This document shows, piece after piece, positions 11,328-50,785 of a stretch of 64,000 nucleotides of DNA. The notes under the pieces were generated by a model. It made no database searches. It was not told where the DNA came from and saw nothing but the letters and a program-made list of their open reading frames with translations. A program made the translations under genes and the position numbers. Position 1 is the stretch's first letter. Every line of letters begins with the position of its first letter. Source of the DNA: Candidatus Aenigmatarchaeota archaeon (lineage in GTDB: Archaea > Aenigmatarchaeota > Aenigmatarchaeia > GW2011-AR5); the NCBI GenBank assembly GCA_016193585.1, contig JACPRW010000001.1:59171-123170 (forward strand). Reading direction: 5' to 3'.

Positions 11328-11424
11328 TATAGTTCTACAAGGAAAGATTTTAGATATTATTTCCTTGTGAACTATAGGTGAACCCAGTCATAACATATCC
11401 TGATTATTTACTGGGTTCCCTATA
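11328..11424. repeat. two adjacent palindromic hairpin elements (F6-variant TATAGTTCTACAAGGAAA...TTTCCTTGTGAACTATA, and F1-variant GGTGAACCCAGT-loop-ACTGGGTTCCC)
   Basis: These are inverted repeats with 20-24 nt loops. The loop is the reverse complement of the F1 loop at 14200-14225. Confidence 0.7.
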
Positions 11425-11784: not shown

Positions 11785-11959
11785 GAAATCTTAAATTGTT
11801 TACAACAACAGTGCATTTGGAATCTATTTATTCGATGCATCATAATTAAGCGCCTTGACCGCCTTTGGCACCGAAGGCCGTGTACATGAAGACAAAGTTC
11901 TCGGAACCTCACCGTTTCATGCATGCTACCTTTAAAAATCTTTCCGCGTATATCGCGGC

Positions 11960-12663
11960 ATGCCCTACCGTAATAACAATTACCGGGACAACAGGCTCGT
12001 TGACAGGATTGATGCTGCAGTGCTGCGCCTTCATGAAAACATTGCCCGGTACTGGCAGAATACAACCTACCGGAGCAAGGACGTTCTCGCAAAGGGCCTG
12101 AATGCGACGTCTCTCGCATGCTGCACGGTCAATATCGGCTCCATACCGCTCACGAAGAATTACGAGGATCTCATTTTTTCAATACCGCTGGGAGCAGCCC
12201 AGGCGCGCAGGCTTGTCAGCCGCGGTCGGCAGAAAACGACGTTAGAGGCTGATGCCGAAAGAATCAGAAGAGACGTATATGATGAGCTGTACGATACAAA
12301 AATACCAAGGCTTGTCGTATTGACAGGCGGGCTTTACGCATTGGGGGGGGGGGGGGGGGGGGAATTTCATATGTCGTCGACGGTATGATCAACGGCAAGC
12401 CGGATGCCATTGCAATCGGGGCAGGGGATTTCATACCCCTTGGCATCGGGATTCTCTCTGCGATGTCTGCAGGGTATATAGATCGCGTGGATATCGGCGA
12501 TCCGCCAAAACGTCCGGAAAGAAAAAGCATCAGGGAGTGGCTACAAGAGTATGCTAGGAATGCGCTTCCTTCTCTTCCCTGTTTACCAAATCCCTTTCCC
12601 AAGCCGTCTTTCGGGACGAACGCGTCTTTGCTGACCGAGGAACTGTATCGAATGTATAGATAA
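11960..12663 (+). pseudogene. hypothetical gene split by a G20 homopolymer (ORFs 11960-12388 and 12385-12663 join with +1 G)
   Basis: Both halves look protein-like (…RLVVLTGGLYALGGGGGG / …VDGMINGKPDAIAIGAGDFIPLGIG…). The frame change coincides exactly with the poly-G run. Confidence 0.4.
12343..12362. repeat. G20 homopolymer tract
   Basis: 20 consecutive G read directly from the sequence. Confidence 0.95.
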
Positions 12664-12826
12664 CTGCGTAGTTTATGTGACGTATTATTAGCAGTTATCT
12701 ATATGCAAACTGCGTTGTATGGTGAATTGCACTGGTTATGTCCTGATATTATTTGCAATTCACCTATAGAAAATTGCGCGTTAATACGACATAACAGAAA
12801 TTTTTATTTACTGGTTTCACTATAAA
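12655..12826. repeat. cluster of four TATAG-terminated hairpin elements (F2, F3-fragment, F5, F4-partial, F1-half)
   Basis: tatagataactgcgtagtttatgtgacgtattattagcagttatctata, then tgcaaactgcgttgta, then ggtgaattgca...tgcaattcacc, then aaaattgcgcgttaatacgacataa. The element supplies the stop codon (TAA 12661-12663) of the upstream ORF. Confidence 0.8.
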
Positions 12827-12849
12827 AGCTTTGCAGTTCTATCCTAACC

Positions 12850-14121
12850 ATGAAGGCGGTAGCTGTCGTCGGCATGCAGTTCGGTGACGAGGCGAAGGGC
12901 AAGATTGTCGACGTGCTCTCGAACAGTAGGGACGTTGTTGCAGGCATTCGTTTCGCCGGCGGCAACAACGCAGGACACACGGTCGTGTTCGGCGGCAAGG
13001 AATACAAGCTGCATCACATTCCTTCTTCCATCTTCCACGGCAAGCTTTCAGTCATCGGGCATGGCACCGTGGTCAATCCTGGCGTACTGCTCGATGAAAT
13101 CAGGCAGCTCGGTGCGCTTGCTGAAAACCTGCGCATCAGCCCCAATGTCCATGTCATCATGCCGTACCATATACATGAGGATGTGCTGCTCGAAGCAAAA
13201 AAAAGCAGCAAGGTCGGTACGACCGGTAGGGGCATCGGCCCGTGCTATGCCGACAAGGCGAACAGAATCGGCATCAGGATAAGGGAGCTGTTCGACGGGG
13301 AAAGCCTGAACAGGAAGCTTGAATTCCTGATTCCGCTCAAAAACAGCACGCTGCAGCACGCATACGGCTGGGACGGTGCGCTGGACAAGGACGCAATTGC
13401 GATGGAGTATGCAGCATACGGAAAATTCCTGAAAACGTATGCTTTTGATGGCACAGTACCCGAAGGAACCGTCCTGCTTGAAGGGGCACAGGGCGCACTG
13501 CTGGACATTGACATGGGAACGTACCCGTTCGTGACGTCGTCGCACCCGACTATCGGCGGAGCGCTCGCCGGTTCAGGCATGCCGAAAGCAGACGCGGTCG
13601 TGGGCGTCATGAAAGCATACACAACAAGGGTGGGCGAGGGGCCGTTCCCGACCGAGCTGACAAACGAGGTTGGCGCGAAGCTGCGGCAGGAAGGCAGGGA
13701 ATTCGGCACGACTACCGGCAGGCCGCGGCGAGTAGGATGGCTTGACATACCCATGCTGAAGTACGCGGCCCGCGTCAACGGCGTTACAGCACTTGCACTC
13801 ACCAAGCTCGATGTTCTGGCAGGCATGCCTGAAATCAAAATCGCCGTTGTCTACGATCGTGCCGGCATACAAATTAATGCACTATCCCATGCGACTGACG
13901 TGGCAGATGCAACGCCGGTTTATGAAATAGTGAAGGGATGGAAAGCGCTGTCTCAGGAACAGTGGAATGCACTTGCCCAGGAAGGCTTTGCAGCGCTCCC
14001 TGAAGAAGCGCAGGAATATGTCAGGCTTATCGAGCGCAGCCTTGCCGTGCCTGTTGCGATTGTTTCAGTTGGTGCAGACAGGAATGCAACGATATTACGG
14101 AAGCCTCTTCACGAATTATAG
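12850..14121 (+). CDS. purA: Adenylosuccinate synthetase
   Basis: MKAVAVVGMQFGDEAKGKIVD...GTTGRGIGP...GTTTGRPRR. The stop TAG (14119-14121) lies inside the TATAG terminus of the downstream element. Confidence 0.9.
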   Translation: MKAVAVVGMQFGDEAKGKIVDVLSNSRDVVAGIRFAGGNNAGHTVVFGGKEYKLHHIPSSIFHGKLSVIGHGTVVNPGVLLDEIRQLGALAENLRISPNVHVIMPYHIHEDVLLEAKKSSKVGTTGRGIGPCYADKANRIGIRIRELFDGESLNRKLEFLIPLKNSTLQHAYGWDGALDKDAIAMEYAAYGKFLKTYAFDGTVPEGTVLLEGAQGALLDIDMGTYPFVTSSHPTIGGALAGSGMPKADAVVGVMKAYTTRVGEGPFPTELTNEVGAKLRQEGREFGTTTGRPRRVGWLDIPMLKYAARVNGVTALALTKLDVLAGMPEIKIAVVYDRAGIQINALSHATDVADATPVYEIVKGWKALSQEQWNALAQEGFAALPEEAQEYVRLIERSLAVPVAIVSVGADRNATILRKPLHEL

Positions 14122-14360
14122 ATAATTGCGCAGCTTATGTCGTATTAACGCGCAATTTTCTATAGGTGAATTGCAAATAATATCAGGACATATAGTGAAC
14201 CAAGTAAATAATCAGGTATTATATCTTGGTTCACTTACACCCAAAAAGCAAAGCTTTTTGGTGCACCGGAAAACTTTGTTTTCCGCGTGTAGCGGACAAC
14301 AAAAGTATTATGTCGGTATTCTTTTGTTGGTCCACTATAACCAGTGCAATTCACCATATA
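14117..14360. repeat. hairpin-element cluster: F4, then F5 split by a nested 150-bp element
   Basis: F5 appears intact at 41585-41632 and 55822-55870. Here it is interrupted after ...caggaca by an insert with TIRs TATAGTGAACCAAG / CTTGGTCCACTATA. Confidence 0.8.
14191..14340. mobile_element. about 150-bp MITE-like element nested in an F5 hairpin (TIR TATAGTGRACCAA, TA/ATA target duplication, three internal hairpins)
   Basis: A second copy lies at 57646-57793 in opposite orientation (roughly 95% identity by eye). The F5 halves on either side reconstitute the intact element. Confidence 0.7.
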
Positions 14361-14397: not shown

Positions 14398-15405
14398 ATG
14401 GCAGCAAAGGATTACAAAATCGCCACACTGGGAAGCCACACGGCGCTGCAGATTCTCAAGGGCGCCAGGGACGAGGGCTTCGAAACGATCGCCGTATGCA
14501 CCCCCCAAATGGCACCGGTATACAAAAATTTCCGCGCTGCGGACAAATTTATCGAGATTTCCTCGGTGAAGGACTTCTTCTCCGTCGAGGAGCAGCTCAT
14601 CAGGGAGAACGCCATCCTTATTCCACATGCCTCGCTCATCACGTACCTTAATCTTGACGCCATAGAACGCATGCGCGTCATGTACTACGGGAACAAAAAA
14701 ATATTGCGGTGGGAGTCGGACCGGCTGCTCGAGCGGAAGCTGCTGCAGAACGCGGGGCTGAAGCTGCCGCGCATCTTCGACTCGCCTGCCGGCATCGACC
14801 GGCCGGTCATCGTCAAGTTCTACGGCGCCAAGGGCGGCAAAGGCTATTTCGTCGTGAAGAATGAAAAGGAATTCGAGGAGAAAATGAAGCAGGAAACAAC
14901 CGGCGAGCAGTATATCATACAGGAGTACATCGTCGGCGTGCCGCTCTATGCCCATTACTTCTACTCGCGGATGAGCAGCGAACTGGAAATCATGGGCTTC
15001 GACAAGCGCTACGAATCGAACGTCGACTCCATCGGCAGGATAGCAGCGAAGGACCAGATGAACCTTAACCTTGAAACGTCGTACAACATCGTGGGCAACA
15101 TTCCGGTGGTGGTCAGGGAGTCGCTGCTGCCGCAGATTTTCTCCATGGGAACTGAGACCGTGAAAGCAGCGGAGGACGCCGGCGGCCTGTTCGGCCCTTT
15201 CTGCCTCGAGATGATCATCACGCCGCAGCTCGATTTCTACGTGTTCGAGCTTTCTGCGCGCATCGTCGCCGGCACCAATCCCTATATCGCCCATTCTCCG
15301 TACACCTACGTGCGCTACAACGAGCCGATGAGCACCGGCAGGCGCATCGCACGGGAAATCAGGGAAGCGATAGCAGCAGACAGGCTGGACGAGATTCTTG
15401 GGTAG
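14398..15405 (+). CDS. purP: 5-formaminoimidazole-4-carboxamide ribonucleotide synthetase (PurP family, ATP-grasp)
   Basis: MAAKDYKIATLGSHTALQILKGARDEGFETIAVC... is the archaeal PurP signature. Confidence 0.8.
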   Translation: MAAKDYKIATLGSHTALQILKGARDEGFETIAVCTPQMAPVYKNFRAADKFIEISSVKDFFSVEEQLIRENAILIPHASLITYLNLDAIERMRVMYYGNKKILRWESDRLLERKLLQNAGLKLPRIFDSPAGIDRPVIVKFYGAKGGKGYFVVKNEKEFEEKMKQETTGEQYIIQEYIVGVPLYAHYFYSRMSSELEIMGFDKRYESNVDSIGRIAAKDQMNLNLETSYNIVGNIPVVVRESLLPQIFSMGTETVKAAEDAGGLFGPFCLEMIITPQLDFYVFELSARIVAGTNPYIAHSPYTYVRYNEPMSTGRRIAREIREAIAADRLDEILG

Positions 15406-15409
15406 TGCT

Positions 15410-16510
15410 ATGATGAACAAAGCCGCTGGGGACGCCATCGTCAGCAAGTACAGCAGGAAGGCAATAACCATTGCAACGATCGGTTCCCACTCGGCGCTCG
15501 ACGTGTGCCGCGGCGCAAAAGATGAAGGGTTGCAGACCGTTGTCGTCTGCCAGAAAGGCAGGGAACAAACATACACGAAGCACTATAAGGTCGTAGTCGA
15601 CCACCCGCTGCTTGTCGACAAGTTCAGCGATGTCGCCAGCCCAACTGTGGTGGCGCAGCTGCAAAAGCTGAACGCGGTTTTTATCCCGAACCGCTCATTC
15701 GAAGTGTACGTGGGCGACTACAGCAGGATCGAAGCGATGGAAATCCCCTTCTTCGGCTCGCGCAGGCTCCTGCGTTTCGAGGAGCGGAACGAAAGCCCGA
15801 ACCAGTACACGCTCATGGAAAAGGCGGGCATCAGATTCCCGAAGCGTTTCGCATCGTCTGATGTTATAGATCGCCTCGTTATCGTCAAAGCAGCAGAGAG
15901 CGAGCGGAATTTCCAGCGCGAGTTCTTCTTTGCTTCATCGCCTGTAGATTTTGAGCGGAAAGCAAGGCAACTTATCGATAGGGGACTTGTTCATGGCAAG
16001 CAGCTCGACAGCGCTGTTATTGAAGAATTTGTTATCGGCGCACACATCAATTTTAATTTCTTCTACTCACCGCTCAGGAGGCGGCTGGAACTCATGGGCA
16101 CTGATTTCAGGCGGCAGACCAACCTTGATGGCTTGCTCAGGATTCCGGCGAAAGAACAGTCAGAATTTACCGTCAATCCAAGCCTCAAAGAAGCAGGCCA
16201 TGTCGCCGCGACCGTGCTCGAGAGCATGCTCGAGAAGGCATTCGGGCTGGGCGAAGCGTTTGTCGATGCGTGCCAACCCTATGGCGGCATCGTCGGCCCG
16301 TTTGCACTGCAGTCAATCATTACGCCCGGCCCGCCGAAAGAAGACATCGTCGTCTATGACGTCAGCCTGCGTATCCCCGGCTCGCCGGGCACGATGTTCA
16401 CACCCTATTCCTACTATCTACACGGCAAGCCGCTGAGCGTCGGCCGACGCATCGCCATGGAAGTGCGGGAAGCCGCGGAAACCGGGCAGCTGGAGAAGGT
16501 GGTGACGTAG
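15410..16510 (+). CDS. purP: PurP-family ATP-grasp paralogue
   Basis: KAITIATIGSHSALDVCRGAKDEGLQTVVVC... is the same family. The start is ATG 15410, or the track's GTG at 15398. Confidence 0.75.
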   Translation: MMNKAAGDAIVSKYSRKAITIATIGSHSALDVCRGAKDEGLQTVVVCQKGREQTYTKHYKVVVDHPLLVDKFSDVASPTVVAQLQKLNAVFIPNRSFEVYVGDYSRIEAMEIPFFGSRRLLRFEERNESPNQYTLMEKAGIRFPKRFASSDVIDRLVIVKAAESERNFQREFFFASSPVDFERKARQLIDRGLVHGKQLDSAVIEEFVIGAHINFNFFYSPLRRRLELMGTDFRRQTNLDGLLRIPAKEQSEFTVNPSLKEAGHVAATVLESMLEKAFGLGEAFVDACQPYGGIVGPFALQSIITPGPPKEDIVVYDVSLRIPGSPGTMFTPYSYYLHGKPLSVGRRIAMEVREAAETGQLEKVVT

Positions 16511-16618
16511 GGATTCTTTGATACATCCCTAGTAGACATAACATCTCGCAGCAGCACACAAGACGAACAAAAGTAGGCATAAGCGCTAGTTAGGCGAAAT
16601 TTATGGAGGAAGTAGAAA

Positions 16619-17353
16619 ATGGATATAAATCCTGAGAAATTCCATAGATCTATAAGTAAAGAGTTGAAGGTAATTCAGGATCGAGTTAGGAATCTTATGG
16701 GTAGTGCACATTGGGGAGAAGAAGGGAGGTATAAGGAAGCCGTATTAAGGAGCATTATAAGAAGATTCTTGCCCAAAAATGTAAGTATAGGCACAGGATT
16801 TATTTTAAAAAAAGAGGGCGACGAGATTAAAATATCAAATCAAATAGATATTATCATCTATGACAATACGTATCCAGTGCTGTTTGCAGAAGGCGATTTT
16901 TTAATAACTACACCAGCAAATGTAAAAGGAATAATAGAGGTCAAGACCAAGTTAAATTCTTCAGATGTAATGGATGTGGTTTCTAAAGCTACAAATAATG
17001 GGAAAGTAGTTGATAATGAGATATTTAGTGGAGTATTTGTTTATAACGAAGGAAATATAGTTAACAACAGCAACATAAGTGATAACCTTAAAAGTGCTTT
17101 AAAAGAGAGTAAAGGCGTTGTGAATCATATTTGTTTAGGGGAAGACATTTTCATTAAATTTTGGCCAAGGAATCCACAAAGTAACTTCCCGAATAAATAC
17201 AGTATCTACAGAATAAAAGACCTCTCCTTTTCTTATTTTATTTCTAACCTTGCTGAACAAACATCTGAGAGTAAGCTAAAAGAAAGATGGTGGTTTTTAT
17301 ATCCCATCGAAAAAGGCAAGGAGGAATATAAAATTGAGGATATTGATGTTTAA
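16619..17353 (+). CDS. PD-(D/E)xK nuclease-fold protein, possible defense/abortive-infection component
   Basis: 244 aa with SNQIDIIIYD ... GIIEVKTKL (D...ExK). The N-terminal region is helical. The gene is AT-rich with a GGAGG SD. Confidence 0.5.
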   Translation: MDINPEKFHRSISKELKVIQDRVRNLMGSAHWGEEGRYKEAVLRSIIRRFLPKNVSIGTGFILKKEGDEIKISNQIDIIIYDNTYPVLFAEGDFLITTPANVKGIIEVKTKLNSSDVMDVVSKATNNGKVVDNEIFSGVFVYNEGNIVNNSNISDNLKSALKESKGVVNHICLGEDIFIKFWPRNPQSNFPNKYSIYRIKDLSFSYFISNLAEQTSESKLKERWWFLYPIEKGKEEYKIEDIDV

Positions 17354-17559
17354 ACTTCGCCTAACATAGCATAAAAGGTTCGTGCCTCACAGCGCTCACC
17401 CAAATTTTTGCTTCGCAAAAACTTCTTTTATGCTGGAAACGTTCAACGAAATTCCGAACATTATTTCAGGCCGCCGACACGATAGCTCTTCGCTTCCAAG
17501 CCTCTGGAACGACAAGGCGAATTTATAAGGATTATCGGAAGAATTATTTATGTGATGTT

Positions 17560-18333
17560 GTGACAAGGAAGAAGGTATCCAAGAAAGATGTACATAAATT
17601 AAAAAAAGAGCCAAAATTTTCTCAAGAGATAAAAACTTCAGTAGTAATGCCTTTCAAATGTAAATTTTGTGGCAATCTTTTTGATATTGAGCACAGACTT
17701 CCAGAAAACCATACTTGTGAAGGTCTTTCTCAATGGAAAGAAAAACATTTGAAAGAATTTCATGAAGGTAAAAGTTCTATCGCATATGAAAACACGCTGG
17801 AACCAAAACATGAAGATTCAGGCTATAAAGATTCTATGAGAAACGCCCTTCGATGTGACTCAAAACAATTTTTCAAAGGAATACCAGAAAAATTCAATAA
17901 ACAGGCAATAAGATTGAATATTCATCGACTAATTCAAAAAAATATGAATGATATCGGCATATGGCTCATAGGCTTATTTATTATCTTTACAGCTTTCAAT
18001 CAGATACTAAAATACTCTATACTTGAAAGTATTTCATGGATTTTTGTTTACGTTGCAGAAATTATTTTTATATATAAGTTGATTAAGCGTGTTGACAAAA
18101 TAGAAGTAAATTCAGATTTGAGTATTTGGGGTTTAAAAATATTATCATTCATCTTTATCCTTATTGGAGTGTATATATTCTTATTCGGGTCTTTGGCATT
18201 AGCCACCGTCTATAGCCTTTATGTTCTCGGGCTTCTTGGTATAATAGCGCTAGGATTCTTTTCAATTGGCGCTTTTCTGATTTTCAAATTCAAACGAAGA
18301 AGTGGGAGCATTGTATGGGTCGGAAGAGCGTAG
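17560..18333 (+). CDS. Zn-finger (AN1-like CxxC...HxxxxxHxC) protein with two C-terminal TM helices
   Basis: [20 protein letters not shown] motif and a K-rich N-terminus, followed by two long hydrophobic helices. The start is uncertain (alternative Met at 17647). Confidence 0.45.
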
Positions 18334-18426
18334 AAGAAATTATTGTAATGAGAAAGTCGTTATAAAACTTATTTTGGCTAGCCTTAAATACTTATATAAA
18401 ATCATATATACATAAACTTATATAGA

Positions 18427-18699
18427 GTGGTAACCATGCAAAAAAGAGAAATTATACACTATCCTAACCTTAGCACAATGCTTGAAGTAGAGAAGGTCCT
18501 GAAAGAAGCAGACGGACCTATATCCAAGGAAGAACTGAAAAGGAGGCTTCCGACAAAGATTATGCACCAGACACTTAACCTTATTTTGGCATACATGGAA
18601 AACAGGGGGCTGATTTTATCAGGCCCGAAAGGCATACTCTGGACATACAATCCCAGCCCGAAACTGCAGAAAGCCATAGAAAAAGGCATTGAGATATGA
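18427..18699 (+). CDS. small winged-helix-like protein (putative antitoxin/regulator)
   Basis: 90 aa. Its stop overlaps the next gene's start (ATGA). Confidence 0.4.
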   Translation: MVTMQKREIIHYPNLSTMLEVEKVLKEADGPISKEELKRRLPTKIMHQTLNLILAYMENRGLILSGPKGILWTYNPSPKLQKAIEKGIEI

Positions 18700-19067
18700 G
18701 TAGAAATATCAACGTCATACTTAGCGAAGAAGCTACCAAGCAATATGAAGAACTGAACAGGATTGTTGGTGATGAAATAAAGAAAGGCATAACGAATTCT
18801 ATTCATCAGCAACTACTCAAATCCATAAAACAGAAATCTGAGCTTCTGAAAATCAATCCTCAGGCTGGAATACACATATCGAAAAAGCTTATACCGAAAA
18901 TCTATATAGACAAATACGATGTCGATAATCTGTGGAAAATAGATTTGTCTGGTTACTGGAGAATGACGTATACGTTGCGGACGACAGAAATAGAAATAAC
19001 GAACTTCGTTCTAGATATAGTAGATCACGTAACGTACGACAAAATACTTGGATACAAGAAAAAATAA
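18696..19067 (+). CDS. RelE/ParE-like toxin
   Basis: N-terminal ...SEEATKQYEEL...IKKGI...LKINP and C-terminal GYWRMTYTL...ITNFVLDIVDHVTY, matching the RelE/ParE fold pattern. Confidence 0.5.
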   Translation: MSRNINVILSEEATKQYEELNRIVGDEIKKGITNSIHQQLLKSIKQKSELLKINPQAGIHISKKLIPKIYIDKYDVDNLWKIDLSGYWRMTYTLRTTEIEITNFVLDIVDHVTYDKILGYKKK

Positions 19068-19466
19068 ACATCGCCTTGTAGCCAAAACCATTCTGAACCT
19101 GAAGAGCCACTTTCAGGCCGTCGGCGGTCCTGTTTTCAGTATTGTGCTGAATGCCTTGCATTCGCACATCTTCGGAGAAATATAATTTCTCCGAGATTCA
19201 GAAAATCTTCGATTTTCGAGAAATTTGCACGAACCTATGGTTCGGTGCAGTATTGTCGGAACTCTTCGCTTTCCTGCGGAAAGCTCGCTTTTCTTTCAGA
19301 AAAGTCGCTGAACAGCGATTAGAAGATCCGCTTCTGCGAAGCTCCATCCAAATGGCGATTATATAAAAAGAAATAATCGCCACTTCTTCTAATCGCATAC
19401 GTTATGCTCAATTCGTGGGCTCGCCGGTTAAAAAGTTTATTAAGCCAACTTAACTATTGATTAATT

Positions 19467-22159
19467 ATGGTAGACATTTTATATATTTTTTCAGGTTCAC
19501 CGTTGCTCTACATTCTCATATTAACATTAATTGCATTAGGTACATTCCTAATCTGGAAGTCATTCAAAACAAAATATAAATTCATTTTTTTAGGGGTTTT
19601 AGGCTTGGGAATAATCACTGTTCTCCTATTTTCTTTTATTAATACTCAACAAGGATCACCTGAACCGGATGCATCTGGAAAATCAGGCTACACATTGACT
19701 CTAAAAGAAGTGTGGGGTTCGAAGAGATGGATAAAGACCTTCGAAAGGCCCGGTAGTGATTATCCATTTGCAGTTCTGCAAACCTCTGACGGCGGGTATG
19801 TGGTTAGCGGGAGAACAAATAACGGCACGAAAGATTGCTATGGCGGGACCCCTATGATTTTAACATTCCTTTTCAAGACAGACGCGGATGGAAACAAAGT
19901 CTGGGAAAAGTTTCATTACGCTGGCAGAATAGTTTCAATCCAGCAGACTTCTGACGGAGGGCTGGTGGCTACAGGATCAATAGCTGCCACTGACACAGGA
20001 ATTGATGTTTACCTTGTAAAAACAGACGCGAAAGGCAGTATTACTTGGGAGAAGAGCTATGGTGAGAGTGATCCCGAGGGAGGATTTTCCGTCCAGCAGA
20101 CTTCTGACGGAGGGTATATCATTGCGGGGGGGGGACAGGTAGACGCTTGGGAAATCAAGGGATTTACTTGCTTAAAGTTGACAGCAACGGAAACAAATTG
20201 TGGAGCAGGATATTCGCCAAAGATTTAAAGACGGATGAGGAACCGCAACTGGTCCAGCAGGCTGCTGATGGAGGCTATATAGTTGTTGGGTGGAGGAAAT
20301 CGCAAGGAATGCCCAGCATAAAAGAAGACCCTAATGACCCATACATTGATGACGACGTCTATTTGCTAAGGACTGATTCATTAGGGAATAAGATTTGGGA
20401 GAAGACGATTGACGCATTTGGGAAGCGTGCAGACGAGAGGCTTGTGCATGATGCCTTGCAAACACCTGACGGAGGTTATGTAATTGTTGGAGGCTCAGCA
20501 CCCATTGTAAGATCAAATGGCGCACTACAAAGTTCGAGCCCCTATGTCTATTTGCTCAAGATTGATTCTGACGGGAACAAAACATGGACGAAGGATTATG
20601 GTATGGGAATTGGTCATTTAGTTCAGCTAACGTCCGACGGCGGTTACATAATCACTGGAGAGGTAATAGACAACGTGGGTCCAAATTACCTTGTGAAGAT
20701 AGGAACGGACAGTGACGGGAATAAGTTGTGGGAGAAACCCATTGAAATACTTAATACATATCAGGGCAAGGATTACCCAAATGTGGTTAAGCCAACCTTT
20801 GACAGCGGCTACATAGTCCTTGGAACCAGAGAATATGGCGACCTTATGGGATATGCCGGCATGCTGGAATCTGATACCCTGCTCATGAAGATAGAAGAAA
20901 CAGACACACTAAGATTGCCGGATTATGAGCGGGTACCGCCGCGTGAAACGAAGTTGCCCACCCAAGTTGAGCTACTGACTCCGACGGGAAAAGGATGGAT
21001 GAAGACAGTTGGAGGGAGTTTAGGCTCAAAGGCGCGAGCCGTGCAGAAGACATCTGACGGAGGCTATATAGTTGCAGGTTGGACTCATCGTAGTGTGACA
21101 GTACCTTATGGATTGAACGACACGACAGTCCTGACACAAAGGGAAGCATATATTGTTAAGACAGATGGAAATGGAAATAAAGTTTGGGAGAAGAGCTTTG
21201 GAGGAGATGGGTTTGAAGACGGGTTTTCAGTACAGCAAACCCCTGACAGCGGGTATATGGTTCTTGGAATCAAGGAGGCATATGCCTATCTGATAAAAAC
21301 AGATGCTTATGGAAACACGCAGTGGAATAAGACACTTGGTGAAAATTATGGTGATGTGGGTTTTTCACTCCTGCAGGCTTCTGACAGTGGATACATAATT
21401 GTTGGGATTACACAAGGCCATGGTGCGACCCCGTGTAACGCAAAAGAACCTGAGCGAGGCGCATCAGCTGATGTCTATATCATAAAGACTGATGCTGACG
21501 GAAACAAATTGTGGGAAAAAGTAATTGGCGGAACGCATATGGATATAGGATATTTTGTGCAGAAGACTTCTGACGGCAATTATATAATAACTGGAATGAC
21601 AGCTTCATTTAGTGAAAAAGGAGTCGAGGATGTTTACCTGCTTAAAATAGACAGCCATGGCAACAAATTGTGGGAAAAGGCAATTGGGGGGGACAAAAGC
21701 GAGATGGGCTATTCAGTACAACAAACTACTGACGGCGGTTATGTAATTGTTGGGCAAACAGTTTGGTCAATCAAAGGAGCAGATATGGGTGAAGGGGGTT
21801 ATGCTAGCCAGTCAGATATCTATTTAATAAAAACAGATACATACGGGAACAAAATCTGGGAAAAGACGTTTGGGGGGAGTTCGATGGATAGGGGATTTTC
21901 AGTGCAGCAGACTTCCGACGGCGGGTACATCATTACCGGAGACACAGACGGGCATCTTTACCTCTTCAAAACAGATGCAGACGGGAATAAAGTCTGGGAA
22001 AAGGCATTCAAAAGAGACGAGACCAAGCCATTCACGGGACGGTCTGTCAAGCAGACTACTGACGGCGGGTACATGGTTGTTGCAAATACGTTTTACACGT
22101 CAACACCTGCCTATCAGCCTATAATACTCATAAAGACAGACGCAAACGGGGATGTGTGA
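19467..22159 (+). pseudogene. secreted multi-repeat beta-propeller-like surface protein, frameshifted at a G9 tract
   Basis: It has an N-terminal TM/signal segment and 15 or more roughly 55-aa repeats (QQTSDGGYII.G....D.YL.KTD..GNK.WEK..GG). ORF 19467-20228 (frame 0) and ORF 20147-22159 (frame 2) share the same repeat and join if the G9 run at 20126-20134 gains one G. Confidence 0.6.
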
Positions 22160-23087
22160 AATTGTGAGAAAAACAATTTTTATAATCCCTTTGCTGATTT
22201 TGATTGTTTTTGTCAGTGGCTGCGTCGGGCAGGGACCTGGCATGAATCCGACTGTAATAACCGGCAAGACAACCATTGAGAAAAGCGGTTTGTACGTCTT
22301 GAACAGCGACATCTCCTGCACCGCCGAAGGTGAAATGGACGTATGCATCGATATACAGAGGCATGACGCTGTGCTTGATTGCCAGGGTCACAGCATAACT
22401 CTGGCGAATCAACAGGCCCGCCGCGGCCCTGCCAGTACCGGGATATACATAGCTGGCAGCGGCGTGGAGGACGTGACTGCCAGGAATACCGTCAGGAATT
22501 GCAGGATTGAGAACTTTGCATTCGGCATATTCCTCAAGGCCAGTTCCAACAACTTCATCAACAACACCATCAGCAACAATGGCATCGGAATCTACTACGA
22601 CGACTTTTCCTCGTACAACATTTTCATAAACAACACGGTGAGTAATAACAACAATAGAGGCATCTACCTGTTCATGCGCTCGTCCAACAACAATTTTACA
22701 GGCAACATTGTAAGAAACAATAGCATATACGGCATCATTATCACCTGCGCGGCACACCACAACACCTTTTCCAACAACGTGGTTGAAGGCAACGGATACG
22801 GCAGCACGAGTGACGAGAACGGCGGAATCTACATCCTCAACTCATACGCCAACGTCTTTTCAGGCAACGGGATATGCAACAACTCGAAAACCATTAAATG
22901 CAAGTTCGATGCCACAATGGAAGGCATAAGTGATATCTGCAGGCCGCAAGTCCTTCCAGACACCATTCCAATTGACAGGGATGCACAGGAAGCCGGAAAC
23001 CTCATTGACGGCGGGGGAAACACCTGTGGTCCGAGCTCCATGAGCTGCGACGGCACCACCATAAGCTGCATCAGGGGTTGCCCATGA
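22152..23087 (+). CDS. right-handed parallel beta-helix (NosD/pectin-lyase-like) lipoprotein
   Basis: Lipobox FVSGC, then N/G-rich approximately 22-aa repeats (NNTISNNGIGIYY, NNTVSNNNNRGIYL, ...). Confidence 0.65.
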   Translation: MCEIVRKTIFIIPLLILIVFVSGCVGQGPGMNPTVITGKTTIEKSGLYVLNSDISCTAEGEMDVCIDIQRHDAVLDCQGHSITLANQQARRGPASTGIYIAGSGVEDVTARNTVRNCRIENFAFGIFLKASSNNFINNTISNNGIGIYYDDFSSYNIFINNTVSNNNNRGIYLFMRSSNNNFTGNIVRNNSIYGIIITCAAHHNTFSNNVVEGNGYGSTSDENGGIYILNSYANVFSGNGICNNSKTIKCKFDATMEGISDICRPQVLPDTIPIDRDAQEAGNLIDGGGNTCGPSSMSCDGTTISCIRGCP

Positions 23088-24604
23088 AAAATCTGGCTAT
23101 TTTCTTTTTATTGTTTATTTCAATAGCACTTATCAGCGGCTGTGTCCAACAACCGTCTAAACTAAAGGATTCAGAAACACCGGGCTATGCATCATCAGGC
23201 ACAACCGGCAAATATCCGGAACAAAATCCAGATTGTGCAAACTCAGGTGTGAAAACCTGGGCAAAAGTGTTTGGCGGGCCTGGATTTGATTATGCAACTT
23301 CACTCCAGCAAACTCCTGATGGAGGGTATGTGGTTACTGGACTCCTTAATTCCGGACCGACGGACTCGACCGGCGAAAAGCAGTATGATGTCCTTTTGTT
23401 CAAGGTTGATATGGACGGGAACAAAGTATGGGAGAAGTCGTACGGGGGGAATGAGAACGATTTCGCATTCTCACTGCAACAGACTGCTGACGGTGGATAC
23501 ATTATCGGAGGAGAAACGCGTTCCTTTGAAGATAAAGGTGCCAATGCCTATCTTATAAAAACCGATGCCGATGGCAATCTGCAATGGAACAGGACATTCG
23601 ATATGTGCGGAGGAAACGAGTCTGACAGGGTACTCTCAGTGAGGCAGACTTCTGATGGTGGGTACATAAGTGCAGGCGTTACATTTTCCTGCAGCCAAAA
23701 GCTCTGGGGGGAACAGCTCCCATGGGACGACTCCTTCCTTCTTAAAACAGATGCAAACGGTAATATGTTGTGGGAGCGCATTTTTGGATGGAAGGAGAAC
23801 ATAGACCAGGCGCTTTCGGTCCAGCAGACCTCTGACGGAGGATTCGTGGCCATCGGATACATACACTATTATGACCCAAACGGACCTATCTATATCTATG
23901 GACGAGACATTTACTTGGTAAAAACTGATAAAGATGGAAACATACTGTGGAACAAAACATTCGGAATCGGTAACAAGACATCTCTTGGAAACGGATTGAA
24001 TAATGCGGAAGTGTTACAGCAGACTTCCGATGGAGGATATGTGGTTGCCGGACAAGGAGCCGACAGACGACTATATCTGCTGAAAGCTGATGCGAACGGC
24101 AATAAAGTCTGGGAAAAATCAATTGGAGATCTGAATTTGCATAGCAGGGGATACTCTGTAAAGGAAACAACTGACGGCGGCTACTTCATTATAGGGGCAC
24201 GATGCATTCCAGACTATGAACCGAGAACCATAATTGTCGACAGTAATGTTATTCTTGAGCATCCATGTGAGTTCTACTTCCTGAAAACTGATGCGAACGG
24301 AAACATAGTATCGGAGATGTCCGGCGGGCGCACTTTCAATGGCGTGCTATGGCCAGGCCAGCAGACTCCTGACGGGGGATACATAATTGTTGAAACTGTA
24401 TTCCCAAGAGTGAGCGCGACCCAGTATGCAAAGACGACTGACATCCTCATGATGAAGCTGAATGAGAATGGAGTTGTATGTAACCTTACTTATGGCCAAC
24501 CCTGCACACTGGTGCCTGAGCCAGAGTGGATAAACAACCCCGCATGCAAAAATCTTATTTATGATGAAGAGTACATTCACAATCCCTATCTCCCAGAGCG
24601 ATAA
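23078..24604 (+). CDS. beta-propeller repeat lipoprotein (same repeat family as 19467-22159)
   Basis: Lipobox LISGC, then repeated QQTSDGGY...YLLK.DANGNKVWEK units. Confidence 0.65.
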   Translation: MPMKNLAIFFLLFISIALISGCVQQPSKLKDSETPGYASSGTTGKYPEQNPDCANSGVKTWAKVFGGPGFDYATSLQQTPDGGYVVTGLLNSGPTDSTGEKQYDVLLFKVDMDGNKVWEKSYGGNENDFAFSLQQTADGGYIIGGETRSFEDKGANAYLIKTDADGNLQWNRTFDMCGGNESDRVLSVRQTSDGGYISAGVTFSCSQKLWGEQLPWDDSFLLKTDANGNMLWERIFGWKENIDQALSVQQTSDGGFVAIGYIHYYDPNGPIYIYGRDIYLVKTDKDGNILWNKTFGIGNKTSLGNGLNNAEVLQQTSDGGYVVAGQGADRRLYLLKADANGNKVWEKSIGDLNLHSRGYSVKETTDGGYFIIGARCIPDYEPRTIIVDSNVILEHPCEFYFLKTDANGNIVSEMSGGRTFNGVLWPGQQTPDGGYIIVETVFPRVSATQYAKTTDILMMKLNENGVVCNLTYGQPCTLVPEPEWINNPACKNLIYDEEYIHNPYLPER

Positions 24605-24668
24605 GACTCCGGGTAAATTCCATAATGGTCGATTAAAATGAGAAACGCGAAGGAAATGAGTAAAGGTA

Positions 24669-25235
24669 TTGTTAGCTTTGATTGTCTTTGTCAGCGGCTG
24701 CGTCCAAGAGGAAAAACAGGTTGAAAAGCAAGAAGAAAAACCAAAAATAGAGGAACGCTATTTTCCTGGCTGGGCACCAGCTCCGCTTGGATTGGCAATT
24801 ACCCCAGATGGAAAAACAGCCTACATTCCCTTCGGACTTGACGATGCGTTACTGGTAGTGAACTTATCAACATTTGCTGTCATCGATTCGATAGATGTAT
24901 CTGAAGCCGGCAACATGCTTCTTTTAACTGCTACAGTCTTGGGTCCAGACGGGAAAAAGCTTTACGTTTCCAACTATGGAACCAAGAACGTGATGGTGGT
25001 AGATACAGAAAACAAACGTGTTGAGAAGGTGCTTCCGTTAAATCCACTCCATGCAGCCGCCATCGCAATATCACGAGATGGAAGCAAAGCCTACGCGCCC
25101 TCAAAAGATGGGGGACTGTACGTAATAAATACTTTAGACAATTCGTATAACCGCATTTTTATACCCGGAGTTATTTTTGGCCCGGTAGTGCCTTCTTCCA
25201 GCAATCCAGAGTTAGTGTATTGGCCGACTTCATGA
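24669..25235 (+). CDS. YVTN-family beta-propeller lipoprotein
   Basis: TTG start with lipobox IVFVSGC, then ITPDGKTAYIP.../GPDGKKLYVSNYGTKNVMVVD.../SRDGSKAYAP YVTN-type blades. Confidence 0.55.
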   Translation: MLALIVFVSGCVQEEKQVEKQEEKPKIEERYFPGWAPAPLGLAITPDGKTAYIPFGLDDALLVVNLSTFAVIDSIDVSEAGNMLLLTATVLGPDGKKLYVSNYGTKNVMVVDTENKRVEKVLPLNPLHAAAIAISRDGSKAYAPSKDGGLYVINTLDNSYNRIFIPGVIFGPVVPSSSNPELVYWPTS

Positions 25236-25259
25236 AGTCCCGATACGTTGTATGCATTG

Positions 25260-26050: not shown

Positions 26051-28957
26051 TTACCATCTCAGCGTTTGCTGCCACGACTCCTTCAGCTCGTTGACAGATG
26101 CACTGATAACTTCGTTTCCGTCAAGACCGCATACGGAAAACAAGCCATCAGGAGTCACGGTACCGATGCACGCCACAACACTGCCAGCTATGGTATGCTC
26201 GAATGCAACCCTGCTTTCAGGTAGGATGGTGACTATGAATCTCGATTGCGTCTCCGAGAAGAGCACGTAGTCATTGCGCTGTTCGCCGTTGTAGGGAACT
26301 TTTCTGAGGTCTATGCTCATCCCTAAATCACCTGCAAACGCCGTTTCAGCGAGCGCCACGCCAAGGCCGCCGTCAGAGCAGTCGTGACACGAAGCGACAA
26401 GCCCTGCTGTCATGGCTTTGTGCAAGCCTTTGTAGAGATTTTTTGCCGCAGGTGCGCTTACCCGTGGTACCTTATTGCCAACAAGGCTATGGTGCGCGAA
26501 ATATTCCGAGCCTCCGAGCTCGTCCTTTGTCTCGCCCAGAATGTACACAAGGTCGCCTGGATGCTTCGCGTCCATGGTGACCGCCGTGCGCACGTCAGCA
26601 ATCTTGCCGACGACGCTGAACAGCAGCGTGGGTGGTATGGAAATCCTTGTTTCGCCCCTGAAGTCGTTCTTCATGCTGTCCTTGCCTGAAATGCACGGAA
26701 CGCCGAAAGCAGTGGTGTAGTCGTACAGCGCCTTGTTCGCCCTCACGAGCTGCCCAAGCTTGTGCGCATCCTGTGTCGGGTCGGGCCAGCAGAAGTTGTC
26801 CAGCGCAGCAAGACAGTCAGGGTCAGCACCGACAGCAACTGCATTGCGTATCGCTTCGTCAAGCGCGCATGCGGCCATGTGGTACGCGTCGATGTCCCCA
26901 TACTTCGGGCAGATGCCGTGGCTGATGGCAATGCCTTCGTTCGATTCGAGCAGCGGCCGGACGACTGCTGCATCGCTTGGCCCGTCGTTGTGCGCGCCGG
27001 TGAGCGGCTTCACGACGCTGCCTCCCTGAACCTCGTGGTCGTACTGGCGTATGACGTATTCCTTCGAGCAGATGTTGAGACGGGAAAGTAATGCCATTAA
27101 TGCGTCCTTCAGGTCAGGCTCGGCAAAGCTGGCATCTGGCCATTGTTTCTCTTCCCACCGGGCGCTGAGCTTCATTCGCGGTGCCCCGTCGTGGAGGAAT
27201 TCCATGTCGAGGTACGCGACCGTTGCGCCGTTGTGCAGTGCATGGAATTTTCCTGTGCCGGTGAATGTGCCGATGGCCGTCGCCTCGACGCTGCGCAGCT
27301 TCGCCAGTTCCATGAATTCCTTTTCCTTGTCCCTGCTCACTGCAAGCACCATGCGCTCCTGCGATTCCGAGAGCAGTATCTCCCATGGCGCGAGTCCCGG
27401 GTACTTGAGCGGGCATTTGTCCAGGTGAATTTCGCAGCCGCCGCTCACGCGCGCGGTCTCGCCGACTGCTGATGACAAGCCGCCGCCACCGACGTCGGTG
27501 ATGAACCGGTACAGGCCCTTGTCCCGCGCCTCGAGCAGAAAATCGTACATGATTTTCTGGGTTATGGGATCGCCGAGCTGCACGGCGCTCACCGGCGAGC
27601 TTTCGCTTATTTCTGCGGACGAAAAGGTGGCGCCGTGGATGCCATCCTTTCCTGTCCTACCGCCTGCGACAACAATGAGGTCGCCGGGAACGACCGTCTT
27701 CGCATGAGACGGTTTCCCGTTGATGGCGTGCGGCATGATGCCGCAGGTGCCGCAGTACACCAGCGGCCTGCCGAGGAAACGGTCGTCGAAAACGATGCTG
27801 CCGTTCACCGTCGGAATGCCGAGCTTGTTGCCGCCGTGCTCGACGCCGCGCCGCACGCCCTCGAAAATGCGCTTCGGGTGCAGGACTCCTTTGGGCAGCG
27901 GCTTGTCGTAGTAGGGGCTTGCGAAGCAAAAAACATCGGTGTTGCACACAAGCCGTGCGCCAAGCCCGGCGCCGATGACGTCGCGGTTGACGCCGACGAT
28001 GCCGGTGAGCGCCCCGCCGTACGGCTCGAGCGCGGAGGGCGCGTTGTGCGTTTCCACCTTCATCGCAATGTTCCAGTTATCATTAAAGCGTATGATGCCG
28101 GCATTGTCCGAAAAGACCGAGACGAGCCACGGCTTCGCAATTTCCTTTGTCGATTTTTTGACGTAGGTGTCGAACAGGGAATCTATCCGCTCTTCGTTTC
28201 CGTCTTCCCTGTAGGTGATTGCTGCGTTGAAAATCTTGTGCTTGCAGTGCTCGCTCCACGTCTGCGCGAGCGCCTCGAGCTCGACGTCGGTAGGGTCCGC
28301 AAGTCCCAGAGCTTCACGCTGTGCACGCACGTCAGGGTTCGAAAAGTGGCGCCTGATGGCCTGCATTTCCCCAAGGGTGAGTGACAGGAGCTTCGATGAA
28401 CTGAGCTGCACCAGCTCATTGTCCGGCAGGTCGACGCTGACCGGTTCTGCATGCGGCGTGCGGTAGAGCTCGACTTTTGGCATCATTGTTGTAGTCGCGT
28501 CGCTTGGGCTCCTGACTTCCCAGCGCTCGATGAGCTCGTTTGCGAGCAGCTTGGTCGCGATGCGTTCCGCGTCGCCTCTGCTCAACGTCCCGCTGACAGC
28601 ATACTGGCGTGATGTATACACATCAGCAGCAATGCCGAGCATGTCGGTTATCGCTTCTTTTGATGTCTTCCCGACGTTGTCGGTGACGCCAGGCTTGAAG
28701 CCGACTTCAATGAGCCAGTTATAGCCACCAAGAACTGGCGCATCGATGGCGAACGTCTGGGTGACAGCATCGGCAAAGAGCTGCGCCGCAAGCGTGGTGA
28801 GCTGCTCATAGCGGAGGTTCGCATCAACAGTATAGACATCAGCAGTTCGCACCGAACCGACATGAAGACTGAGGTCGGCTTCTATTCGCTTGGCGACGGC
28901 ATTGCCGAGCGCGTCCGGGATTGCCGGCTTGCATGCCACTTCGATGCGGTGCGCCAT
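26051..28957 (-). CDS. purL: FGAM synthase PurL with two N-terminal PurS-like domains (PurS-PurL fusion)
   Basis: 968 aa. The N-terminal roughly 170 aa contains two PurS-like units (KPAIPDALGNAVAKRIE... and KPGVTDNVGKTSKEAITDMLG...LANELIERWEV), followed by the AIRS/AIRS_C duplicated FGAM synthetase body. Confidence 0.85.
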   Translation of the reverse strand: MAHRIEVACKPAIPDALGNAVAKRIEADLSLHVGSVRTADVYTVDANLRYEQLTTLAAQLFADAVTQTFAIDAPVLGGYNWLIEVGFKPGVTDNVGKTSKEAITDMLGIAADVYTSRQYAVSGTLSRGDAERIATKLLANELIERWEVRSPSDATTTMMPKVELYRTPHAEPVSVDLPDNELVQLSSSKLLSLTLGEMQAIRRHFSNPDVRAQREALGLADPTDVELEALAQTWSEHCKHKIFNAAITYREDGNEERIDSLFDTYVKKSTKEIAKPWLVSVFSDNAGIIRFNDNWNIAMKVETHNAPSALEPYGGALTGIVGVNRDVIGAGLGARLVCNTDVFCFASPYYDKPLPKGVLHPKRIFEGVRRGVEHGGNKLGIPTVNGSIVFDDRFLGRPLVYCGTCGIMPHAINGKPSHAKTVVPGDLIVVAGGRTGKDGIHGATFSSAEISESSPVSAVQLGDPITQKIMYDFLLEARDKGLYRFITDVGGGGLSSAVGETARVSGGCEIHLDKCPLKYPGLAPWEILLSESQERMVLAVSRDKEKEFMELAKLRSVEATAIGTFTGTGKFHALHNGATVAYLDMEFLHDGAPRMKLSARWEEKQWPDASFAEPDLKDALMALLSRLNICSKEYVIRQYDHEVQGGSVVKPLTGAHNDGPSDAAVVRPLLESNEGIAISHGICPKYGDIDAYHMAACALDEAIRNAVAVGADPDCLAALDNFCWPDPTQDAHKLGQLVRANKALYDYTTAFGVPCISGKDSMKNDFRGETRISIPPTLLFSVVGKIADVRTAVTMDAKHPGDLVYILGETKDELGGSEYFAHHSLVGNKVPRVSAPAAKNLYKGLHKAMTAGLVASCHDCSDGGLGVALAETAFAGDLGMSIDLRKVPYNGEQRNDYVLFSETQSRFIVTILPESRVAFEHTIAGSVVACIGTVTPDGLFSVCGLDGNEVISASVNELKESWQQTLRW

Positions 28958-50690: not shown

Positions 50691-50785
50691 AGCCACCGAA
50701 GGGAATTGAACCCTTAACCTGCAGTTCAATCGGAAGGTTTCTCCTCTTACAAAACTGCTGCTCTGCCAGGTTGAGCTACGGTGGC
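50691..50785 (-). tRNA. tRNA-Thr(UGU) with 21-nt intron in the anticodon loop
   Basis: Hand-folded as GCCACCG-TA-GCTC-AACCTGGCA-GAGC-A-GCAGT-TTTGTAA-[agaggagaaaccttccgattg]-ACTGC-AGGTT-AAGGG-TTCAATT-CCCTT-CGGTGGC-T. Every stem pairs and the anticodon is TGT. Confidence 0.8.

Follow-up and report, generated by a model that had tools for sequence, protein, structure and literature searches.

Homopolymer switches are known from Campylobacter jejuni, in which the switching tracts are poly-G/C, and likewise from Neisseria, Haemophilus, Bordetella, and Mycobacterium tuberculosis (PMC3025981, PMC11868660, PMC1891110). Orsi et al. 2010 (PMC2831843) and Lin and Kussell 2012 (PMC3315296) proposed that intragenic homopolymers are reversible off-switches, and archaeal genomes were included in these surveys. 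What they reported as enriched was for the most part short poly(A)/poly(T) toward the 5' ends of genes, with no 5' bias for poly(G)/poly(C) (PMC2831843, PMC3315296). As of 2025, a review listed how phase variation is distributed among archaea as a question for the future (PMC11868660), and our search of the literature turned up neither a report of repeat-mediated phase variation in DPANN nor an archaeal example from a natural population. Diversity-generating retroelements are one route by which the surface proteins of CPR and DPANN organisms become hypervariable. Another form of targeted surface-protein hypervariation in CPR/DPANN is a hypervariable repeat gene that was described in a Gracilibacterium (PMC6851277).

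Here we consider two poly-G tracts, A and B, in a 64-kb stretch of an archaeal metagenome-assembled genome (MAG); by "the window" we mean this whole stretch. The surveys cited above give statistics and hold no allele data from archaeal populations; what we have here is long poly-G well inside genes, whose length differs between assemblies of one strain. We think that these differences are slipped-strand length variation in the style of the poly-G contingency loci of Campylobacter, and we would give this reading a probability of about 55%.

Two poly-G tracts at two frame changes

A census of all homopolymers in the window, along with direct reading of the sequence, identified two long tracts, and each lies in a gene that is annotated as two open reading frames (ORFs):

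Tract A, 12343..12362, forward strand: G20 in the deposited record
Gene A, 11960..12663, forward strand: two annotated ORFs, HYY37_00355 (142 aa) and HYY37_00360 (92 aa)
Tract B, 20126..20134, forward strand: G9 in the deposited record
Gene B, 19467..22159, forward strand: two annotated ORFs, HYY37_00400 (253 aa) and HYY37_00405 (663 aa)

No other run of G or C in the window is longer than 7. Runs of G become about 5-fold rarer with each extra base (there are 13 of G5, 3 of G6, and 1 of G7), and the longest run of C is 6 or less. Extrapolating by hand from the G-run counts, we would expect about 0.03 runs of 9 or more by chance and about 1e-9 of length 20. Also, GGG accounts for 15% of the glycine codons in the window, while the tracts are GGG throughout. 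Across the assemblies described below, tract A is G13-15 (20 in the MAG) and tract B is G9-11, so both are intragenic homopolymers in the range that can slip (about 8 or more G or C).

Tract A is 57% of the way into its gene, where an ORF at 11960-12388 (frame 2) joins another at 12385-12663 (frame 1). Tract B is 25% of the way into its gene, where an ORF at 19467-20228 (frame 0) joins the reading frame at 20135-22159 (frame 2). An earlier sequence-only reading of this DNA had placed runs of G20 and G9 at exactly these frame changes, and both the sequence and the ORFs confirm it. The ORFs are exact matches of the NCBI proteins HYY37_00355/00360 and HYY37_00400/00405, from a contig of 157,853 bp in a MAG that is labelled Candidatus Aenigmarchaeota archaeon. 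The same reading held that adding one G would restore each gene. In silico, this is correct: the two halves of gene A fuse to give 234 aa and the two halves of gene B fuse to give 897 aa, and the latter product is identical to a protein from independent assemblies (P0007). In nature, however, the in-frame form of tract A is G15TGG (18 nt) rather than G21, and it yields a single gene of 233 aa (P0004). Besides the tracts, neither gene contains a stop or a frameshift.

Upstream of gene A there is a candidate promoter element, from reading the sequence:

TTTAAAAAT, 11932..11940, forward strand: TATA-box-like, about 24 nt 5' of the start codon of gene A

We take this element to be TATA-box-like from the archaeal promoter consensus. 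A scan for sigma-70 promoters and terminators was set aside as irrelevant to an archaeon.

The genes that carry the tracts

Gene A had no match in Pfam or NCBIfam, and a word-indexed protein search returned nothing besides the protein itself. Its homologues came to light in a full HMMER scan, which identified 46 related proteins (E <=0.001) among 1.84 billion representatives. A protein-based scan of genome contigs found no relatives of gene A. Most members of the family are about 180-220 aa, and many of them align in one piece from around residue 7 to around residue 215 of the query. Those members that could be named are from MAGs of Woesearchaeota and Aenigmarchaeota (DPANN). The family (P0129-P0173) has a conserved N-terminal motif, 'IDxID...WQNKTY', and a C-terminal tail of the form 'DPPKKPKKKP...LPxPxP'.

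The alignment of this family is unbroken across tract A: where the homologues have 'LY-GxGxxxxxxG...', the protein in the window has 'LYALGGGGGG', and the homologues lack a glycine run at this site. By codon-usage scoring, the annotated frame is preferred both before and after the tract. Given the family alignment, AlphaFold predicts an all-helical protein (pLDDT 80) in which the glycine run encoded by tract A would lie inside a helix at 114-144; the single-sequence model (pLDDT 36) was unusable. The predicted helices are weakly hydrophobic. None of the folds in the PDB was significantly similar to the alignment-based model (the best E was about 1). Gene A is a real single gene from an uncharacterised family of all-helical proteins of about 200 aa, and its product is probably associated with the membrane.

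Gene B begins with two N-terminal hydrophobic segments; the next 800 aa or so are propeller repeats with the motif TSDGGY...YLxKTDxxGNKxWEK. It matches PQQ_2 from Pfam at 36.3 bits (the cut-off is 27.6), which places it in the beta-propeller repeat class. There are 7717 homologues with E <=1e-10, including 'delta-60 repeat' proteins and T9SS-sorted proteins. Orthologues at 64-83% identity continue in one piece across the site of tract B, where they have GTTGGGGGTACT, GCAGGCGGGACC or GTGGGAACT, that is, G5 or no run, with mixed codons. In the window, tract B codes for GGG(G), which falls in a loop that follows a beta-strand in one of the propeller repeats. Gene B is a real single gene, and it encodes a beta-propeller protein that is predicted to be anchored in the membrane. 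The sequence-only reading described it as a beta-propeller protein of roughly 900 aa that is split between frame 0 and frame 2, and the 897-aa P0007 and the match to PQQ_2 agree with this. Its further description, as an archaeal surface protein, is reasonable: the genome is labelled as Aenigmarchaeota, the window contains purP genes and a 95-nt tRNA-Tyr (see below), and from the hydrophobic segments and the propeller of gene B we infer that the protein is exposed at the surface.

One related contig (L008; ENA ERZ27254754, k141_2070519) encodes, at positions 1-120, part of an orthologue of gene B that is 83% identical and has an in-frame TAA ('GGF*VQQTTDGGY'). This stop precedes the site equivalent to tract B, which has no homopolymer, by about 15 codons. 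Either a nonsense mutation occurred independently or the sequencing was in error. We considered whether P0012, which starts at the tract site, represents an independent frameshift in a relative, and we rejected this: the cause is the in-frame TAA, and there is no tract.

Gene B lies in a stretch of low GC content (16600-25250, at 38-47% versus 50-59% around it) inside a cluster of purine biosynthesis genes. Upstream are purB, purD, purF, purA, and two purP, and downstream are purQ, purL, and a purM-like gene. The low-GC stretch itself encodes a DUF6602 protein, a zf-AN1 protein, small ORFs, gene B, a NosD-like beta-helix protein, and two hypothetical proteins, and could represent an island of genes for surface proteins that the genome acquired. 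The two purP are tandem paralogues at 14398-16510 (formate-dependent FAICAR synthetase; DUF1246 and DUF1297), and they score below the equivalog cut-offs of NCBIfam. A nearly complete purine pathway is notable for a MAG that is labelled as DPANN. Farther along the window there is a tRNA:

tRNA-Tyr (GTA), 50691-50785, reverse strand: 95 nt, unusually long

The length of this tRNA points to an intron, which would be in line with an archaeal origin, as are the two purP genes and the TATA-like element upstream of gene A.

Tract lengths in other assemblies of the same strain

The MAG is probably from a study of groundwater (PMC7906910; PRJNA640378): an orthologue contig, JACPVU01, falls in the accession range of that project. 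In that study, each groundwater filter was sequenced on a HiSeq 4000 or a NovaSeq 6000, and the filters were assembled separately with MEGAHIT and IDBA-UD scaffolding (PMC7906910). We compared tract lengths in the contig consensus of per-run Logan assemblies of sister SRA runs, which we found via protein clusters that included ORFs from the window. This gave six Logan runs for tract A (we read four of the contigs) and five Logan contigs for tract B, and the context of the tract was always identical. The alleles are:

Tract A, G13TGG (16 nt): third frame, 197 aa; SRR12113422 (1 run)
Tract A, G14TGG (17 nt): out of frame; SRR12113419 and SRR12113385 (2 runs)
Tract A, G15TGG (18 nt): in frame, the 233-aa P0004; SRR12113431 and two other samples (3 runs), the commonest
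Tract A, G20 (20 nt): out of frame; the MAG only
Tract B, G9 (9 nt): out of frame; the MAG only
Tract B, G10 (10 nt): in frame, the 897-aa P0007; SRR12113432 and three other contigs, the commonest
Tract B, G11 (11 nt): out of frame; SRR12113428 (1 contig)

The tract was present in all 11 of the Logan runs or contigs that cover the two loci. At tract A, the alleles span all three reading frames, and a T that is three bases before the end of the tract in each of the six Logan runs is absent from the window. As in contingency loci, the frame toggles between a full-length and a truncated product: P0004 (233 aa) versus P0001, P0002, and P0009 for gene A, and P0007 (897 aa) versus P0005 and P0008 for gene B.

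Outside of the tracts, the assemblies hardly differ. Over about 15 kb, the flanks are 100% identical save for one mismatch at the end of a short contig (L002, at its first bases). Three contigs of 1.29 kb (L001, L003, and L007) differ from the window at tract A alone, and two contigs of 13.9 kb (L004 and L005) have no mismatches to the window, with a sole gap at tract B. The G11 contig from SRR12113428 has the full length of 13.9 kb and the same end points as the contigs from the G10 runs. Other homopolymers in the same contigs (a G7, four A7, and one T7) did not vary. The G7 is inside gene B, at 21686-21692, and is invariant across the assemblies that we compared, so it serves as an internal control for stability.

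The sequence-only reading, which offered a choice between an artefact and phase variation and called for a look at length heterogeneity, is partly supported. Heterogeneity is present between assemblies (16, 17, 18, and 20 nt at tract A and 9, 10, and 11 nt at tract B) with identical flanks, and it is compatible either with slippage or with miscounting of the homopolymers. Two more specific proposals from that reading did not survive. It had suggested that the G20 run might be a poly-G artefact of two-colour chemistry, but the glycines from the tract fill a segment that is present in the homologues, and the tract is in every assembly that covers it, so it is not an extraneous insertion of dark-G calls. 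And the idea that uniform G20 and G9 tracts mark pseudogenes is contradicted by the variation in length. The tracts are true parts of two true genes in one DPANN strain.

We sought further alleles in the GTDB representative genomes and in metagenomes from JGI, using scans for DNA with exact flanks, and also via the neighboring ORFs; these searches found none. We also note that the Logan contigs from different runs share their ends (at 11389, 12682, 14331-14333, and 28264-28265), which suggests branching of the assembly graph, due to strain variation or to sequence that is common to other genomes, rather than low coverage. Positions 12683-14330, which contain purA, are not covered by any of the Logan contigs that we fetched.

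Explanations for the length differences and comparison with known systems

If the lengths vary by slipped-strand mispairing, then during replication the nascent strand or the template strand would slip within the G:C homopolymer, which would gain or lose a G, and the rest of the gene beyond the tract would be read out of frame unless the change was a multiple of 3. G15TGG would be the ON allele for the 233-aa helical protein A, G10 would be the ON allele for the 897-aa membrane-anchored propeller protein B, and the OFF alleles would encode N-terminal stubs of 141-253 aa. For each of the two proteins, ON and OFF cells would coexist in the population, ON cells would be the most frequent, and the consensus of the deposited MAG would have recorded, by chance, an OFF length at both sites. 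This mechanism presumes that the differences arise in cells, and not in library preparation or base-calling, and that switching is reversible. It would also presume that switching benefits the organism, which is probably attached to a host or exposed to viruses.

The main rival explanation is that the strain has fixed, in-frame tracts (G15TGG and G10) and that the other lengths, those in the window included, were miscounted because of PCR stutter, phasing after long runs of G, or the choices of k-mer assemblers. We consider this to be plausible but less likely than slippage. The spectrum of alleles is what stutter would give as well, and this counts against slippage in cells: the in-frame alleles are the commonest at both tracts, and the deviations at tract A among the Logan runs are contractions of 1 and 2 nt (to 17 and 16 nt), as slippage during PCR predicts. 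G20 without the T and G9 are confined to the MAG and appear in no Logan assembly, which points to an outcome that depends on the assembler. The T near the 3' end of tract A is in every Logan assembly and missing from the MAG, and phasing errors typically include miscalls of T to G after a long run of G. As this T is in all six Logan runs, pure G20 is probably not the exact sequence, and both of the lengths in the window (pure G20 and G9) may be consensus errors. The probable use of the HiSeq 4000 or the NovaSeq 6000 with MEGAHIT and IDBA-UD is in keeping with miscounting, and dark-G chemistry may have been involved, as G is the dark channel on the NovaSeq.

On the other hand, indel errors at a 10-mer should affect a small minority of reads, and yet the contig from SRR12113428 has G11 and is otherwise identical over 13.9 kb. 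Illumina consensus errors at 10-11-mers are uncommon, so a G11 on a full-length contig argues for a real majority allele. Similarly, three lengths of tract A each assembled cleanly, and in different runs. Homopolymer slippage should make any run of 13-15 G highly mutable in vivo, and even if there is technical stutter, the G15 run must slip in cells too. The genes also fit the usual cargo of contingency loci, as gene B is predicted to be membrane-anchored and the helices of gene A are weakly hydrophobic. Further points in favor of slippage are that the tracts recur from run to run, that the shorter homopolymers on the same contigs are constant, and that both tracts consist of GGG, a minority glycine codon, at sites where orthologues have mixed codons.

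Two other explanations take the out-of-frame DNA of the window at face value at both tracts, and we find both of them very improbable. If the genes were decaying and being lost from the lineage by ordinary inactivating frameshifts at mutation-prone sites, then the in-frame TAA in the orthologue of gene B from contig L008 could be another sign of this. But intact alleles with identical flanks exist (P0004 and P0007) and are the commonest, which excludes fixed pseudogenes; neither gene has acquired any other stop or frameshift; and codon usage still favors the coding frames on either side of each tract. Alternatively, the full-length proteins might be made by recoding, that is, by slippage of RNA polymerase or by programmed ribosomal frameshifting, and long homopolymers can indeed trigger RNA polymerase slippage in bacteria. 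We give this little credence. Recoding is not needed, as the lengths differ between assemblies at the level of DNA and include in-frame alleles. And unlike at conserved programmed frameshifts, the homologues and orthologues are in one frame and have no tract; there is neither a conserved slippery site nor DNA that is uniformly out of frame.

Slipped-strand variation in length is one claim, and a switch that is maintained by selection is another. It seems to us a little less than an even bet that a DPANN archaeon has true homopolymer contingency loci here, with an ON/OFF ratio that differs between filter fractions or sampling dates. A contingency locus might be expected to keep its tract in relatives or to recur, and we saw neither among the homologues of gene A, the orthologues of gene B, and the 64 kb. 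The tracts are lineage-specific, and because the orthologues and homologues lack them, evolution has left no sign of a switch that is maintained. The location of tract A, 57% of the way into its gene instead of near the 5' end, also counts against slippage.

If these are indeed contingency loci, then they would be an example, from a natural population, of repeat-mediated phase variation in the Archaea. Biological differences in length would imply a bet-hedging switch of the bacterial type in an episymbiotic lineage of archaea, for proteins that are likely to meet hosts or viruses, and the public runs would make it possible to test the ON/OFF state against attachment (filter size fraction) or time. 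If instead the differences are technical, then the four 'hypothetical protein' entries (HYY37_00355/00360 and HYY37_00400/00405) are two intact genes that were split by homopolymer miscalls, and gene A defines a small family that is so far from DPANN MAGs and that has no model in Pfam or NCBIfam.

How do these loci compare to what is known? They resemble the homopolymer errors of short-read MAGs in that the ORFs break precisely where there is a long homopolymer, no other assembly reproduces the deposited length, and the data are from Illumina. Unlike in such cases, the other assemblies disagree among themselves, and 10-mers and 11-mers are found on 13.9-kb contigs that are otherwise perfect. 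They share with the hypervariation of CPR/DPANN that small episymbionts would be diversifying their surface proteins within a population, and that local disagreement between assemblies is the sign of it. Here, however, there is a simple toggling of the frame by a homopolymer rather than shuffling of repeats or mutagenesis by a retroelement; in the part of the ORFs that was scanned, we noticed no reverse transcriptase or template repeat near gene A or gene B.

The closest parallel is with the contingency loci of C. jejuni. The differences are that the host here is an uncultivated DPANN archaeon from groundwater and not a host-associated bacterium; that there are two tracts in 64 kb, one of which (tract A) is unusually long (13-15 G, or 20 in the MAG) and is interrupted by a T; and that neither tract is conserved in orthologues, with switching that is putative. 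As in C. jejuni, a G:C homopolymer (about 8-13 nt or more) lies within the gene and changes of 1-2 bases in it toggle the frame, several lengths, which may be alleles in cells, occur among assemblies that are otherwise identical, the tract is an unusual run of GGG codons, and the cargo appears to be surface or membrane proteins.
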